Origin: Candidatus Micrarchaeia archaeon | Lineage (GTDB): Archaea > Micrarchaeota > Micrarchaeia > Anstonellales > Anstonellaceae | DNA length: 42,034 nucleotides | Direction of reading: 5' to 3' | Assembly (NCBI GenBank): GCA_041662045.1 | Contig: JBAZTI010000003.1 | Location: 1 to 42,034 of the forward strand | In this document: positions 16,265-37,083 of the stretch, piece after piece | How the letters are laid out: each line of letters starts with the position of its first letter | How positions within the stretch are numbered: position 1 is the stretch's first letter | Notes under the pieces: model-generated | The model's database searches: none | The model's input: only the letters and a program-made list of their open reading frames with translations | What the model was told of the DNA's origin: nothing | Made by a program: the position numbers and the translations under genes

Positions 16265-16348
16265 CTACATGAAGTCCGCCAATCCTTTCTGCGCTTGAAG
16301 GCGCCGACATGCCCGCCCGCCTACATGAAGTCCGCCAATCCTTTCTGC
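16265..16348. repeat. Perfect 28-nt direct repeat containing the stop codon and last 8 codons of the PolD large subunit gene
   Basis: CTACATGAAGTCCGCCAATCCTTTCTGC occurs at 16265-16292 and 16321-16348, a period of 56 nt. The second copy is the true gene end (..QKGLADFM*). Confidence 0.95.
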
Positions 16349-22184: not shown

Positions 22185-22258
22185 CATTTTCACGTAGGTG
22201 AAAATGGCAATAAGTTGTGCGAAGCACAACTGTATCGTCAAGTTGCAAGAGCAACTTG
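22185..22258 (+). repeat. Cluster of three consecutive hairpins between tRNA-Pro and the convergent nth stop
   Basis: CATTTTCAC-GTAG-GTGAAAATG (22185-22206), AGTTGTGC-GAA-GCACAACT (22213-22231), CAAGTTGC-AAGA-GCAACTTG (22239-22258). The 22-mer AAGTTGTGCGAAGCACAACTGT recurs at 23175-23196. Confidence 0.85.
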
Positions 22259-22970: not shown

Positions 22971-23125
22971 CGGGCCCGTGGCGCAGCCTGGATAGCGCGG
23001 CAGACTTCTATCCGTAGGGGGCAGATGACTCAGATAATATCCCCCTAACGGTTCACCCCCAATTTGGGCGCATGAACCGGCGATGGAGAAATCTGAAGGT
23101 CGTGAGTTCAAATCTCACCGGGCCC
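22971..23125 (+). tRNA. tRNA-Arg (anticodon TCT) with an ~80-nt intron after position 37 (about 23010-23089)
   Basis: Acceptor GGGCCCG/CGGGCCC, D arm GCGC-AGCCTGGATA-GCGC, anticodon stem GCAGA / TCTGA (27:43 is G.A), loop CT-TCT-A, T arm GTGAG-TTCAAAT-CTCAC, discriminator G. The intron folds into two long stems. Confidence 0.8.
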
Positions 23126-23135
23126 GTTCTTTTTT
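23126..23135 (+). terminator. Oligo-T termination tract after tRNA-Arg
   Basis: TTCTTTTTTC immediately follows the discriminator base. Confidence 0.5.
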
Positions 23136-23137
23136 CA

Positions 23138-23219
23138 AGAAGGTCGTGATCGTCAACTGCGTAGCAGTTGGCGAGAAGTTGTGCGAAGCACAACTGTGAG
23201 TTCAAATCTCACCGGGCCC
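23138..23219 (+). repeat. Second copy of the tRNA-Arg 3' part, interrupted by a pair of hairpins
   Basis: GAAGGTCGTGA (23138-23148) equals 23094-23104. GTGAGTTCAAATCTCACCGGGCCCG (23195-23219) equals 23101-23125. The 46-nt insert holds CAACTGC-GTA-GCAGTTG and AGTTGTGC-GAA-GCACAACT. Confidence 0.9.
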
Positions 23220-29219: not shown

Positions 29220-29905
29220 GCAAGAAGAGCGACGACGTTATGCGCCTTGAGGGCGTGTGCAAGATATACGAGATGGGCGAGGACAAGCTCTATGCGCTGA
29301 ACAATGTGGACCTGGTGATAAAGAGGGGCGAGTTCGCCTCCATCCTTGGCCCATCCGGCAGCGGCAAGTCCACGCTTTTGCACATACTGGGGCTTCTTGA
29401 CGAGCCCTCGCGGGGGGAGATATACCTGGACGGCATCGAGGTGCACAAGCTGAACGACGACGAGCGCGCGCACCTGCGCGGCAAGAAGATAGGGTTCATA
29501 TTCCAGATGTTCAACCTCATCCCAAGCCTCACCGTGCTTGAGAACGTGACGCTGCCGGCGCTCATTTACGAGTCGGACCCGGAAAAAGCGCAGCAGAAGG
29601 CGGTTGAGACGCTTCGGCAGATAGGGATGGGCGAGCGGCTGGGGCATTACCCCAACCAGCTTTCGGGCGGGCAGAGGCAGAGGGTGGCGATTGCGCGCGC
29701 CCTCATCAACGACCCGGAGATAATACTTGCGGACGAGCCGACCGGCAACCTGGACACCAAGACGGGCCACGAGGTTCTCGCAATGTTCCATGACCTGCAC
29801 AGGCAGGGCAAGACCATGATAATAGTGACGCACGACACCAATGTCGCAAAAATCACCCACCGGACAATCCGCGTGGTGGATGGCAAAATCGCCAAGGAAA
29901 GCTAG
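29216..29905 (+). CDS. ABC transporter ATP-binding protein (MacB/LolD-type)
   Basis: Walker [11 protein letters not shown]-loop, signature LSGGQRQR, Walker [13 protein letters not shown]-loop VTHD. Confidence 0.92.
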
Positions 29906-29915
29906 AGGTGAGAAT

Positions 29916-31421
29916 ATGGAAAACAGGATATTTGCAGTTTTGGCGCTCGCGCTTTGCCTTGCAGGCGCCGCGCATGCCACGCTTTACGTGGACTCGTATT
30001 CCGTGTCCCCGGCAAGCCTCAACCCCGGGCAGGAGGGAGTGGTCACTTTTGCCATACAAAACCCCATACCGACCGGCTTGACAACCACCGACCAGCTGGA
30101 GAGCGTGCAGGTATTCTATGCCGCGCCTGCCGGGATTGAGTACAAGGCAGCAAGCCCGTTCATGGTGGGCACCATAAGCGCCGGCGGCTCGGCATTGGTC
30201 ACAGTGCCTTTCAAGGTCCGCGCAGACGTGAAGGGAGGGGTGATAACCGCCCCGTTTTACATTTCCATGAAGGACGCGACAGACCTCAAGACAATAAATG
30301 CCGGGATAACCGTGGTGAACCCGGCCATACTGTCATTCAGCTCGGACCACCAGACCGTGCTTTCCACCGACCTGATAAACCTCACAATCACCAACAACGG
30401 GGGCTCGGCCTCCAGGGCATCGCTTTCGTTCGCAGCAGGGAGCAATTTCTCGTTCGTAGGCCTGACCTCGATATACATCGGCGACATCAAGGAATCCGTT
30501 TCGGTGATGGTGCCCCTTGACTCGAGGAAAGTGGCCGAAGGCGTGACAGGGGTGCCGTTCGTGCTTTCCTACACGGACGACGGCGGCAACAGCATTTCGT
30601 CCTCAAACACGCTCACGCTGGCAATCAAGAAGGAGAAGGCGGACGTGGCATTCACCCAGCTTGAGCCCATTGTGACCAACAAGGACAATGTGCTTCGCAT
30701 GAAGGTGAAGAACAACGGAAGGCCGCTTGAGGACTTCCGCGTTTACCTGACCGACGAGCTGGTAAAGGCAAAGGACTCGACGCCGATAAAGCTCGGGACG
30801 CTTGGCACCGATGACGAGAAGACGTTCGAGATCCTGGTCTTCGTCACCCAGCAGCCGGGCCTGAAGGCCACCTCATTCCAGATAAAGTGGGTGGAGGAGG
30901 ACGTGGACAAGGAAGAGGCCATCAGCGTGCCGATTGCGATAAGCTCGGACGCAGAGGTCGGGATATACCTGGATGCCAAGCCCGCCCCGATTGCGGTGGG
31001 CGGGGACTACACGCTCTCAGCTACAGTTTCCAACCTGGGCTCGTACAAGATAGCCAACGTGGTGGTGTCTCTCGAGGAGAGCGACGCGTTTGTCGGTCTC
31101 AACGTGCAGAAGGAGCAGTACATAGGCAACCTGGACAATGACGCATTCTCCACAGTGCAGTACAAGATACGCGTGAAGCCCGCCATTGAGGCAGGCCAGT
31201 ACCCGCTTGTTTTCAAGGTGCGCTACAAGGACCAGTCCGGCCTTTGGATTGAGAAGGAAATCAGGACGATGGTGAGCGTAAGGCCTGCAAGCGAGGGAGT
31301 GGCAAAGGACAACGGCAGCGGAACGCTTATGCTCATCGGGGGCGTGGCAGTGGTTGCGGTTGGCTACTGGTACTTCAGGATGAGAAAGCCCAAGCATGGG
31401 CTTTCTCAGAAGTCGAGCTAG
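29916..31421 (+). CDS. Secreted CARDB/S-layer-like repeat protein with a C-terminal TM anchor
   Basis: RBS-like AGAGGTGA precedes the ATG. Signal peptide MENRIFAVLALALCLAGAAHA, repeated beta-rich modules, C-terminal LMLIGGVAVVAVGYWYF plus a basic tail. Confidence 0.7.
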   Translation: MENRIFAVLALALCLAGAAHATLYVDSYSVSPASLNPGQEGVVTFAIQNPIPTGLTTTDQLESVQVFYAAPAGIEYKAASPFMVGTISAGGSALVTVPFKVRADVKGGVITAPFYISMKDATDLKTINAGITVVNPAILSFSSDHQTVLSTDLINLTITNNGGSASRASLSFAAGSNFSFVGLTSIYIGDIKESVSVMVPLDSRKVAEGVTGVPFVLSYTDDGGNSISSSNTLTLAIKKEKADVAFTQLEPIVTNKDNVLRMKVKNNGRPLEDFRVYLTDELVKAKDSTPIKLGTLGTDDEKTFEILVFVTQQPGLKATSFQIKWVEEDVDKEEAISVPIAISSDAEVGIYLDAKPAPIAVGGDYTLSATVSNLGSYKIANVVVSLEESDAFVGLNVQKEQYIGNLDNDAFSTVQYKIRVKPAIEAGQYPLVFKVRYKDQSGLWIEKEIRTMVSVRPASEGVAKDNGSGTLMLIGGVAVVAVGYWYFRMRKPKHGLSQKSS

Positions 31422-31434
31422 GGGCTCGGCTAAG

Positions 31435-31470
31435 ATGAGAAAGCGCAAGCCGGCGCTTTCCCAGAAGTAG
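31435..31470 (+). repeat. Degenerate duplicate of the last 13 codons + stop of the preceding gene
   Basis: ATGAGAAAGCGCAAGCCGGCGCTTTCCCAGAAGTAG (MRKRKPALSQK*) versus the gene end ATGAGAAAGCCCAAGCATGGGCTTTCTCAGAAGTCGAGCTAG (MRKPKHGLSQKSS*, 31380-31421). Confidence 0.8.
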
Positions 31471-31523
31471 CAATCATCCCGTGCCAATGCATCTGCAGGG
31501 CGGCATCAGGCCGAGGTGTATGA

Positions 31524-32744
31524 GTGAAACTCATCGACATATTGGTATATTCGCTCAAGAGCCTCGCGCACCGCAAGATGCGCGCCTGGCTCACCGTGCT
31601 GGGCATTGTGATAGGCATAGCCGCGGTGATATCGCTGATGACCCTGGGGCAGAGCTTCAATGACTCTGTCAACAAGCAGCTCTCCGCGCTTGGCTCCAAT
31701 ACCATTTTCATCACCCCCGCGGCAGAGTCTTCCGGAGGGTTTGGTAACGCGCCCATGAACCCTACCGCTGGCAAGCTTTACGACAAGGATGCGGAAAGGA
31801 TAAAGCGCGTGCCAGAAGTGTCCGACATCGCGCGCATACTTACCTCAAGGGGGAGCGTGGGCTACAGGGAAAAGAACCTCACAGCGAGCATAATAGGCGT
31901 GGAGCCTGGCGTTTTTGAGAAGACGACCGCGCTCAAGATTGCGGCAGGGCGCTTCCTGCAGGAGAACGACAGGCGCGTGGTGGTGATAGGCGACCAGGTG
32001 GCGTACGACACGTTTGGCAGCAGGAACACGCTTTCCGTGAACTCCGTGATCCTGATAAAGGGGATAAAATACAAGGTGGTGGGCATACTGGAAAAGTCCG
32101 GCGGAGGCTTTGGCTACAGCAACACGGACACAGGCATTTACATACAGTTCACCGAGGCGCGCGAGATGTTCAAGGCTTCCCTTGCCCCAAACGAGGTGCA
32201 GGCAATGGTACTGTCCGTGCGCGAAGGCTCTGACATGCCGGATGTGGTGGACAAGATAAAAAACGAGCTGGACGCCTCGCACAAGGTCAAGCCGGACAGC
32301 AGGGATTATTCCGTGGTGGACCCTGCAAGCATACAAAAGGCGGTGAGCAGCGTGCTTTCCATGATAACTGTTTTCCTCGGCGCGATAGCGGGCATTTCGC
32401 TCCTTGTCGGGGGGCTGGCAATCGCGTCCTCAATGTTCACATCGGTGATTGAGAGGACGCATGAAATCGGCGTGCTGAAGGCGATTGGCGCAACTAGGGG
32501 GGACATACTCGGCATATTCGTCATAGAGGCAGGGGCTATCGGGGGCATTGGCGGCGTGTTTGGCGTGCTCATAGGCATGGCAGTGGCTTACGCGGCCACA
32601 GTGTTCGGGCTGCCCTCTGCGGTTGGCTGGCCGCTCATTCTGTTCGGGGTGGGCTTTGCAGTCGTGATCGGCCTGGCGTCAGGCTTCGTGCCTGCGAGGA
32701 ACGCGGCAAGGATGACGCCCGTGGATGCGCTTAGGTATGATTGA
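31524..32744 (+). CDS. ABC transporter permease, MacB/FtsX family
   Basis: N-terminal TM helix, large periplasmic MacB_PCD-like domain, C-terminal FtsX-type 3-TM bundle (ERTHEIGVLKAIGATRGDIL). GTG start. Confidence 0.85.
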   Translation: MKLIDILVYSLKSLAHRKMRAWLTVLGIVIGIAAVISLMTLGQSFNDSVNKQLSALGSNTIFITPAAESSGGFGNAPMNPTAGKLYDKDAERIKRVPEVSDIARILTSRGSVGYREKNLTASIIGVEPGVFEKTTALKIAAGRFLQENDRRVVVIGDQVAYDTFGSRNTLSVNSVILIKGIKYKVVGILEKSGGGFGYSNTDTGIYIQFTEAREMFKASLAPNEVQAMVLSVREGSDMPDVVDKIKNELDASHKVKPDSRDYSVVDPASIQKAVSSVLSMITVFLGAIAGISLLVGGLAIASSMFTSVIERTHEIGVLKAIGATRGDILGIFVIEAGAIGGIGGVFGVLIGMAVAYAATVFGLPSAVGWPLILFGVGFAVVIGLASGFVPARNAARMTPVDALRYD

Positions 32745-34001: not shown

Positions 34002-34167
34002 GCAGGGATAGCCAAGCTTGGTCAAAGGCGCAGGACTCAGAGAGCCCTTTTTGCTCCTCCCGCAAGCGCTCGTCGCAAAAAGCGCTCGCGGAAAAGTAAA
34101 ATGTGCAACAAGGTCTTCGGAAATCCTGTCGGTTAGCCGTTCGTGGGTTCAAATCCCCCTCCCTGCA
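34002..34167 (+). tRNA. tRNA-Leu (anticodon CAG) with an ~81-nt intron after position 37 (about 34042-34122)
   Basis: Acceptor GCAGGGA/TCCCTGC, D arm GCC-AAGCTTGGTCAAA-GGC, anticodon stem CAGGA/TCCTG, loop CT-CAG-A, long variable arm (CGG-TTAG-CCG), T arm GTGGG-TTCAAAT-CCCCC (one U.C mismatch), discriminator A. Confidence 0.8.
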
Positions 34168-34184
34168 CTTCGCTCTTGCTCAGT

Positions 34185-34248
34185 GCAGGTCGGTTTCGAC
34201 CTGCGGTCGAAATCCCGCCAGCAAGCTGGCGGTCCCCCTCCCTGCACT
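34185..34248 (+). repeat. Degenerate second copy of the tRNA-Leu T-arm/3' end, embedded in two hairpins
   Basis: Hairpin GCAGGTCG-GTTT-CGACCTGC (34185-34204), T-loop-like GGTCGAAATCC, hairpin CGCCAGC-AA-GCTGGCG (34216-34231), then TCCCCCTCCCTGCACT (34233-34248), identical to 34154-34169. Confidence 0.85.
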
Positions 34249-36833: not shown

Positions 36834-37083
36834 TTATTTGAGCCGAATCGCATCAAGGTTCATCGGGGCTCGCGAGTCGATGCGCAACGCTAGTTGCGCA
36901 GATTTTCAGCCTCAGCTGAAAAGACGAGCGGGCTCTACTTGAGCCTGATGGCATCCAAATTCATGGGTGCGCGCGAGTCGACGGACAACCGCAGTTGGAC
37001 GGATTTTCAGCGCAGCTGAAAACAAGAGCGCCATCCTATTTCAGCCTGATAGCATCAAGATTCATTGGCGCTCTTGAATCGAT
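36834..37083 (-). repeat. Tandem array (period 101 nt, 3 copies) of the aCPSF1 3' coding tail plus a hairpin-bearing spacer
   Basis: Tails at 37036-37083 (in the gene), 36935-36982 and 36834-36881. Spacers of 53 nt each hold TTTTCAGC-N3/4-GCTGAAAA (37004-37022, 36903-36922) and a CAAC-N4-GTTG stem (36882-36899 is perfect). Confidence 0.95.

Follow-up and report, generated by a model that had tools for sequence, protein, structure and literature searches.

The subject of this analysis is a gene tail that occurs twice, 55 nt apart, at the end of a surface-protein gene in a Candidatus Micrarchaeia archaeon, and the family of short hairpin-forming DNA units to which both copies of this tail belong. 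The locus lies in a stretch of 42,034 nt (contig JBAZTI010000003.1, positions 1 to 42,034, forward strand; "the window" in the following) of G000, a metagenome-assembled genome (MAG) of 1.21 Mb in 91 contigs with an estimated contamination of 6%. The relatives used for comparison are Candidatus Micrarchaeota/Micrarchaeia MAGs, and the genus set comprises 23 genomes including G000. The surface protein is encoded by the third gene of an operon with the order PadR - ABC ATPase - surface protein - two FtsX permeases, and orthologues of it are present in 19 of the 22 other genomes of the genus. In the list of open reading frames (ORFs) the gene spans 29841-31421 on the plus strand, with a likely start at the ATG at 29916 (MENRIF..., which resembles a signal peptide). 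Its product matches CARDB (Pfam, 3.5e-6), NPCBM_assoc, and DUF11, and the CARDB/DUF11-type domains are followed by a C-terminal membrane helix and a basic tail, the present C-terminus being ...YWYFRMRKPKHGLSQKSS. The next gene in the operon, encoding the first FtsX/MacB-type permease, is listed at 31524-32744 on the plus strand. The hairpins described below sit in the 102-nt gap between these two genes.

The repeated tail and its hairpins

Re-reading of the sequence placed the gene end, ATGAGAAAGCCCAAGCATGGGCTTTCTCAGAAGTCGAGCTAG, at 31380-31421, where it encodes MRKPKHGLSQKSS, and the second tail, ATGAGAAAGCGCAAGCCGGCGCTTTCCCAGAAGTAG (MRKRKPALSQK), 13 nt further on at 31435-31470, both as described in the earlier note. 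A direct-repeat search of the window recovered the two tails as a 35-nt direct repeat (31379-31413 and 31434-31468) with 30 of 35 positions identical (86%) and a spacing of 55 nt, in agreement with the near-identity noted before. Only 35 nt of the 55-nt period are shared, and the other 20 nt are unrelated. The role of chance was tested with dinucleotide shuffles and with mispaired tails across the genome. A degenerate 34-nt pattern spanning both copies matched only these two places in the window and appeared in none of 100 dinucleotide shuffles, and a 24-nt core pattern searched against the whole 1.21-Mb genome found both copies and one unrelated site on contig C6. In the mispaired control, in which 27-nt tails were set against a downstream region not their own, none of 5 x 1115 trials gave as many as 22/27 matches. 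The earlier note had named low complexity of Lys/Arg codons as an explanation that would undo its claim. Since the repeat is absent from the shuffles and from the mispaired-tail control, it is real, and neither chance nor low complexity is its source.

Copy 2 retains an open frame and a stop, as stated earlier, but it lies in the +1 frame relative to the gene, behind a TAG and a TAA. Being out of frame with two stops ahead of it, copy 2 is not expected to be translated, in line with the doubt already expressed about a 12-aa peptide.

Each tail copy is itself palindromic, a property that the earlier note had overlooked; the 24-nt core pattern matches copy 1 on both strands. Copy 1 forms tail hairpin "a" (31380-31413, plus strand), whose arms at 31381-31392 and 31397-31408 are complementary at 12 of 12 positions around the 4-nt loop AGCA, giving a perfect 12-bp stem (TGAGAAAGCCCA / TGGGCTTTCTCA). 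Copy 2 forms tail hairpin "b" (31435-31470, plus strand) with arms at 31436-31446 and 31453-31463, of which 10 of 11 positions pair (TGAGAAAGCGC / GCGCTTTCCCA). The copies differ at five positions, two of which face each other in a single base pair (C-G -> G-C, a compensatory change); of the other three, one opens the closing pair, one alters the loop, and one creates an A.C mismatch. A further hairpin, linker hairpin B (AGTCGAGC-TAGGG-GCTCGGCT; 31411-31431, plus strand), is predicted by folding, and the TAG stop of the gene (31419-31421) lies within its loop; no linker hairpin follows copy 2. The RNA fold of the 141 nt at 31360-31500 has an energy of -63 kcal/mol (z = -4.5). Copy 1 hairpin, AGAAG, linker hairpin, and CTAAG together make up a complete double-hairpin unit of 55 nt (31380-31434, plus strand), which has the architecture common to 16 aligned junctions and from which the gene now takes its C-terminus MRKPKHGLSQKSS and its stop. 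What is conserved is the palindromic DNA together with the unit junctions, rather than a 12-aa peptide.

A dispersed family of double-hairpin units

Units of this kind consist of a hairpin formed by an ATG with purine-rich codons and a complementary 3' arm, the motif AGAAG, a short perfect-palindrome hairpin of variable sequence, and CTAAG. At clean filled and empty sites the canonical unit measures 54 nt (18 codons), compared with 55 nt at this locus, and tail units outside ORFs can also be 51, 53, 55, or 63 nt long. At the orthologous locus of other genomes, modules follow the pattern ATGA(G/A)AAA...variable hairpin...TTTYTCAGAAG, then a linker hairpin, CTAAG, and the next ATG module.

The distribution of the family was followed with R1, a covariance model of the unit junction, with which 79 further matches were aligned. 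Within the genus, R1 found matches in 17 of 23 genomes, as many as 19 in a single genome and at many different loci, and gave no match in six small genomes of 0.8-1.0 Mb (G010, G018, G002, G012, G004, and G016). An order-wide scan (E <= 1e-4) matched 20 of 121 genomes, 16 of these, including G000, within the genus. Units taken from unrelated genes of different genomes are >80% identical across their full length, which argues that the family has been dispersed and did not originate locally each time. Within G000 the architecture is found at unrelated genes on contigs C7, C27, C21, C1, C11, C34, C22, and C30, the junctions on C21 and C1 being in the interior of ORFs, and the junction motif also occurs by the gene upstream of EF-1alpha. 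Two paralogues ending in GWGNMENSWGFII bear arrays that repeat a MENSWGFII tail, with five units at C7:26150-26420 and three at C27:6060-6200. One block of the C7 array is duplicated exactly (27/27), representing a recent array expansion. A rough tally of 93 junctions yielded 19 that are open on both sides, 31 that are read through with the native tail still forming the C-terminus, 22 in tail arrays, and 21 others.

Both hairpin types covary. Across the 16 aligned junctions the linker hairpin is 95.9% paired, with five of its eight pairs changed on both sides, and among eight modules of the tail hairpin at this locus four of 12 pairs are changed on both sides. Such covariation, together with three consecutive stable hairpins (z = -4.5) in an intercistronic gap, would suit a functional RNA, i.e., hairpins between the cistrons with a role in stability, termination, or processing of the operon mRNA, or a bulge-helix-bulge intron, with the duplication selected for dosage of the structure. 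Tail hairpins moreover contain more G.T than A.C mispairs (48 vs 19), though the scoring itself favoured G.T. We nevertheless consider a functional RNA very unlikely, because linker stems in the 79 aligned junctions consist of 598 Watson-Crick pairs with just 4 G.T, 3 A.C, and 8 other mispairs. This nearly pure Watson-Crick pairing is unlike that of an RNA-selected helix, which normally tolerates G.U. In addition, the element is missing from most orthologous loci, and the units within ORFs are all stop-free and multiples of three in length, as expected for sequences that are translated rather than spliced. There was no Rfam match at any threshold, no terminator-like T-run, and no match to the consensus of an intrinsic terminator. 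A strict bulge-helix-bulge search (helix, 3-nt bulge, 4-bp helix, 3-nt bulge, helix), which in a control found one of two tRNA introns, gave 0 matches at 31340-31520, and relaxed searches returned only noise, with lengths incompatible with multiples of three at C1 and C21. When AGAUGA...CAGAAG was checked by hand as a kink-turn or C/D box, the tandem G.A register was off by one nucleotide.

The linker stems fit AG-YYGNGC...GCNCRR-CT, with GTAG in some of them only, and their sequences differ strongly from copy to copy while remaining perfect at the DNA level. Perfect stems of variable sequence fit either templated quasipalindrome correction or recognition as DNA hairpins. Template switching is able to create and to repair perfect hairpins (PMC8794818), and we suggest that the stems may be held perfect by templated (template-switch) correction and not by selection at the RNA level.

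Orthologous genes with and without a unit define its boundaries. UvrB contains an insert of exactly 54 nt in G022 and none in G000, with ATGAAAAAC as the native 3' codon, and an agmatinase-like gene contains 54 nt in G003, G006, and G017 and none in G000 (native 3' codon GTG). Bud32 is filled in G000 (54 nt) and G022 (102 nt) and empty in G003, G021, G006, and G017 (native 3' codon ATG), and the first 16 nt of its insert repeat the native ATGAAAAAGGCGCTTG as a perfect 16-nt direct repeat; the 54-nt unit in the Bud32-like kinase gene of G000 lies in frame at C21:6913-6966. In the gene for an FAD-dependent reductase, 54 nt are inserted in G000 only (native 3' codon ATT), all nine orthologues compared being empty. 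The reductase unit is in frame at C1:30690-30743, comprises the 18 aa MENSGRNFPEAEPAGSGK, and is the cleanest lineage-specific insertion that we observed. An aminoacyl-tRNA-synthetase-like gene has two 54-nt units in G003 and one in G022; for G000, gaps in BLAST indicate that the units are absent, and the alignment left the site unresolved. As the closest genomes share about 80% DNA identity with G000, no fresh insertion was caught.

All internal inserts are multiples of three, free of stops, and placed 5' of a native codon in a single register, ATG...AAG joined to ATG. Owing to this register, units within genes read as 18 extra residues, and from their length and the absence of stops we infer that they are translated as parts of the host proteins. 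The direct repeats that flank the units are AT/ATG in the reductase and UvrB, RTG in the agmatinase-like gene, 16 nt in Bud32, and 35 nt at this locus. Repeats ranging from 2-3 to 35 nt do not fit a transposase with a fixed stagger.

Ancestry of the two tails

Comparison with sister species shows that copy 1 is identical at 32/33 positions to the active tail of G003 and at 31/33 to that of G021, and that copy 2 matches the active tail of G006 at 32/33 positions plus a 3-nt indel. Linker hairpin B is homologous to the second of the linker hairpins that G003, G006, G022, and G021 carry at this locus. The linker agrees with that of G003 at 28/30 positions plus one extra G, and the hairpin differs from its counterpart by C->T (CAG->TAG) and the same extra G. 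Each copy is thus nearer to another species' tail than to its neighbour, which argues against a recent local duplication. Two histories would fit: the copies may be older than these species, with different units retained in different lineages, or the conserved junctions may be places where modules move or recombine. The earlier description of copy 2 as a diverged duplicate of the gene end holds insofar as a genuine, non-chance second tail is present; this tail is however no plain duplicate of its neighbour (30/35, vs 32/33 to the sister tails), and both copies are hairpin modules of a dispersed double-hairpin family of about 54 nt.

These comparisons bear directly on replication slippage, by which the last ~55 nt of the gene would have been copied in tandem and then diverged, the hairpins being incidental. 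The copies do stand in tandem with a 55-nt period, and exact recent duplications (27/27) occur elsewhere, in the C7 array and at PolD. Slippage of a whole period should however repeat it head to tail, whereas just 35 of 55 nt recur here; the intervening segment belongs to a dispersed, covarying hairpin family, and the copies resemble other species' active tails (32/33) more than each other (30/35). Slippage is therefore, in our judgement, highly improbable.

At the orthologous locus, G003 and G006 each carry two units and a final tail, G021 carries two units, and G022 a single one. In G007 a hairpin tail is displaced, with no linker junction detectable by the model, and the clade-typical MRKPK tail lies downstream of a different active tail. 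In G017 the active tail, MRKKPEKHAKQ*, is the module that closes the arrays of its sisters G003 and G006 in displaced form. Since modular arrays recur at this locus in five genomes that were assembled independently, and 17 genomes carry them at many further loci, it is scarcely credible that two strain alleles of the tail were joined in tandem by the assembler or that the contig is chimeric. The linker, too, is a bona fide family member and not allele sequence. Such an artefact could be suspected from the 91 contigs of the MAG, its 6% estimated contamination, and the discordant ancestry of the operon.

This discordance is pronounced. By PolD and the reductase, the species relatives of G000 are G003, G017, G006, G022, G020, and G021: PolD is 89% identical to G003 and G017 and the reductase 82-86%, compared with ~72% for G007, G001, and G011. 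The ABC operon (29.2-34.0 kb) instead favours the G007/G001/G011 side, with 72-76% nucleotide identity to G007 and 65-67% to G003, and the first permease is 75-79% identical to G007/G001/G011 and 60-63% to G003/G006. In the operon flanks the relation is reversed (78-80% to G003, 66-69% to G007). The operon allele must therefore have been exchanged at some time, which indicates allelic replacement of the surface/transport locus PadR - ABC ATPase - surface protein - FtsX x2. Within this foreign-looking operon, the 92 nt at 31380-31471 form an island of identity; the 90 nt upstream of the unit match G003 at only 51/90 positions and at 12/30 third codon positions.

The mosaic operon invites a simpler explanation, namely that ordinary recombination, by way of a short homologous stretch at ATGAGAAAG, replaced the gene end with DNA of a related strain and shifted the resident end downstream, without any specialised element. 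Junction motifs do recur as apparent break points, and displaced tails elsewhere keep their stops with mainly synonymous differences (e.g., VKKRR*, CGA->AGG). We regard recombination alone as unlikely, since it accounts neither for the inserts of exactly 54 nt that lie in frame within UvrB, the reductase, and the agmatinase-like gene, away from gene ends, nor for the constant two-hairpin architecture with covarying stems.

With moderate confidence, we interpret the look-alike tails as adjacent modules of a dispersed, canonically 54-nt double-hairpin DNA insertion unit that is non-coding by design. Units directly precede a native ATG-like codon (ATG, GTG, ATT), usually with purine-rich codons after it. 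Near gene ends, a unit would extend the tail or, if it bears a stop, replace the tail and strand the old one downstream. At this locus, one unit (31380-31434) would stand ahead of an older tail module (31435-31470). Because the linker hairpin carries a TAG and is 1 nt too long, the gene now ends in the unit (MRKPKHGLSQKSS), leaving MRKRKPALSQK as a putative untranslated fossil. As to which tail is ancestral, a question raised by the earlier note, comparison with orthologues suggests that copy 2 (MRKRKPALSQK*) probably represents the older C-terminal end, since displaced: every clean filled/empty comparison has the unit on the 5' side of the native sequence, and G017 uses as its active tail the displaced module at the end of the G003 and G006 arrays. 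With the linker of G003, the unit in the window would be 54 nt long and open, reading MRKPKHGLSQK-PSQGSAK-MRKRKPALSQK*. Most probably the unit was read through at first, with copy 2 as the true C-terminus, until a later nonsense change (CAG->TAG, +1 G) severed copy 2, and this course of events would explain why copy 2 has kept an intact frame and stop.

Several points weigh against this interpretation. The polarity of the locus is drawn by analogy with the filled and empty sites. Copy 2 is a full tail hairpin with AGAAG, and both modules may predate the split of G003 and G006, different units having been lost later. The units have no clear terminal inverted repeats and no target duplication of fixed length (direct repeats of 2-3 to 16-35 nt), and the discordant ancestry of the operon complicates taking the island of identity as a sign of mobility. 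Nor is any enzyme linked to the units, G000 having no tyrosine integrase and only a broken fragment of a Y1 transposase. Y1 transposase (PF01797) occurs in 6 of the 23 genomes, the G000 fragment contains a stop, and several element-rich genomes have none; we rejected it as the mobiliser because of this poor phyletic correlation. Tyrosine integrase (PF00589), absent from G000, is found in none of the six element-free and in 12 of the 17 element-bearing genomes, a co-occurrence that is suggestive only, being confounded with genome size and phylogeny. The six genomes without R1 matches also lack any PF00589 tyrosine recombinase, even of the Xer type. Finally, the 3' arm of the first hairpin matches codons of the local gene itself. 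Simple transposition leaves this gene-specific match of 3' arm and local tail unexplained; the match requires either copying from the target or later templated homogenisation.

The units may have spread by a mechanism acting at the DNA level. A bolder version, which we hold to be possible but doubtful, is that they represent an undescribed class of 18-codon double-hairpin elements that home to ATG-plus-purine-rich codons, copy part of the target into the first hairpin, and spread by an enzyme or a replication-template-switch route unlike characterised transposition, rewriting C-termini and leaving datable stacks of old ends. If the insertion-unit interpretation is right, the duplicated gene tails scattered through this genome would be traces left by a single family of very small structured insertion units, and stranded tails a built-in fossil record of successive C-termini. 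It would mean that a streamlined genome tolerates selfish DNA confined to an 18-codon, stop-free register and to gene ends, and that real protein sequences are altered, among them surface-protein tails and loops of UvrB and Bud32. For annotation, the family would account for small ORFs that are spurious, for genes that seem to be extended at the 3' end, and for unexpected insertions in proteins that are universal, as met with in DPANN archaea.

Likeness to known systems and other duplicated tails

In behaviour the units come nearest to Rickettsia palindromic elements (RPEs) and to REP/BIME mosaics, and in their effect on gene ends to C-terminal displacement arrays, but by our tests they are members of none of these. 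RPEs are short dispersed hairpin repeats that sit in frame within unrelated housekeeping genes, are read through, and have no known mobilising enzyme (PMC10969869). Like them, the present family is dispersed, multicopy, and hairpin-forming (R1 in 17 of 23 genomes, covarying stems) and makes in-frame inserts in unrelated genes (UvrB, the agmatinase-like gene, Bud32, the reductase) with empty sites in relatives. The likeness meant here is one of behaviour. The unit described here measures 54 nt instead of about 100-150 bp, has an archaeal host, and combines two side-by-side hairpins with conserved AGAAG and CTAAG-ATG junctions. It further differs in its strong bias to ATG-purine-rich sites and gene 3' ends, its tandem arrays, and the stranded copy of a gene tail. 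If our interpretation is correct, the family would be an archaeal counterpart of RPEs with an independent origin in another lineage of reduced, host-dependent cells. Searches of the paper library turned up no account of such repeats in Micrarchaeota or DPANN.

The REP/BIME/REPIN elements with RAYT resemble the units in being short palindromes that cluster near the 3' ends of genes and in the gaps within operons, in building mosaics where hairpin types alternate, and in conserving their structure while the sequence varies. Unlike them, the units have no conserved GTAG head, also occur inside ORFs and so are not strictly extragenic, and coincide with a cognate Y1/RAYT gene in only 6 of 23 genomes, the one in G000 being broken. 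The orphan arrays of rhs and cdiA-CT resemble the locus in that a new end joins at a conserved motif and the old end lies intact but unexpressed just downstream, with stacks of old ends as at aCPSF1 in the window. The pieces here are however 30-60 nt long, hairpin-bounded, and without toxin/immunity function, and identical units also occur far from gene ends. Prokaryotic miniature inverted-repeat elements (MITEs; Correia/NEMIS) are likewise non-autonomous-looking, multicopy, structured, patchy among close relatives, and sometimes fused to ORFs, but the units show no evident terminal inverted repeats and no target duplication of fixed length, and no parent insertion sequence was found here. Template-switch (quasipalindrome) mutation would account for the perfect stems and the one-step C-G -> G-C swap (PMC8794818), yet as a local process it does not by itself disperse a unit to new genes.

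Other systems were considered and rejected. In a CRISPR array, identical repeats separate unique spacers of at least 25 nt, whereas the junction "repeats" differ in each unit and the intervening pieces are palindromic and 10-60 nt long. An integron attC site is one imperfect palindrome with RYYYAAC/GTTRRRY cores, served by an IntI integrase, and does not match two separate perfect hairpins with no GTTRRRY core by inspection in a genome without a PF00589 gene. The architecture does not fit a lox/dif-like recombination site, and a 55-nt interval is too short for excision by recombinases of this type. With respect to a diversity-generating retroelement, the copies are far too short and their differences are not adenine-specific; no reverse transcriptase is evident in the ORFs read around the locus, where no search by reverse-transcriptase family was made.

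The earlier note had placed the locus within a wider theme of gene-tail duplication that included aCPSF1 and PolD. The theme itself is borne out across the genome: of 1115 ORFs, 12 (0.4 expected) have their 27-nt tail repeated, with 20/27 or more matches, in the 300 nt that follow, and PolD and aCPSF1 are among the 12. The copies at these two genes are, however, without the AGAAG/CTAAG junction, and the absence of the R1-type junction from some duplicated-tail loci indicates that there is more than one cassette type. The tail of the PolD large subunit is repeated exactly (27/27) after a 29-nt spacer at 16265-16348 of the window, and the aCPSF1 tail (36834-37083 of the window, minus strand) recurs with periods of ~101 nt, each copy within its own inverted repeat. 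Many duplicated tails keep their stop and differ at synonymous sites, a pattern expected of formerly translated ends, whether these were units that were read through or a functional tail preserved at successive stages. Further 27-nt tail recurrences 30-110 nt downstream were seen at C5:25801, C30:8255, C1:11366, C6:30728, C42:1573, and C11:1992, all with the stop kept and with mostly synonymous differences (e.g., ATAGGCGCTTTCCTAAGGTACAAGTAG vs ATAGGCGCGTTCCTGAGGTACAAATAG).

Hairpins of the type AG-YYGNGC-GAA-GCNCRR-CT were also observed near tRNAs of the window, at 22185-22258, 23130-23215, and 34168-34248 (e.g., AGTTGTGCGAAGCACAACT, seen twice). They lie after tRNA-Pro, within a second copy of the tRNA-Arg 3' end that they split, and between two copies of a tRNA-Leu end, and several contain GCGAAGC, an unusually stable DNA mini-hairpin. 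In the same part of the window, Rfam reports tRNAs of 155 nt (22972-23126) and 166 nt (34002-34167) with long introns, neither of which ARAGORN reported, and the strict bulge-helix-bulge scan detected its motif in the tRNA at 34002-34167 only and not in that at 22972-23126.

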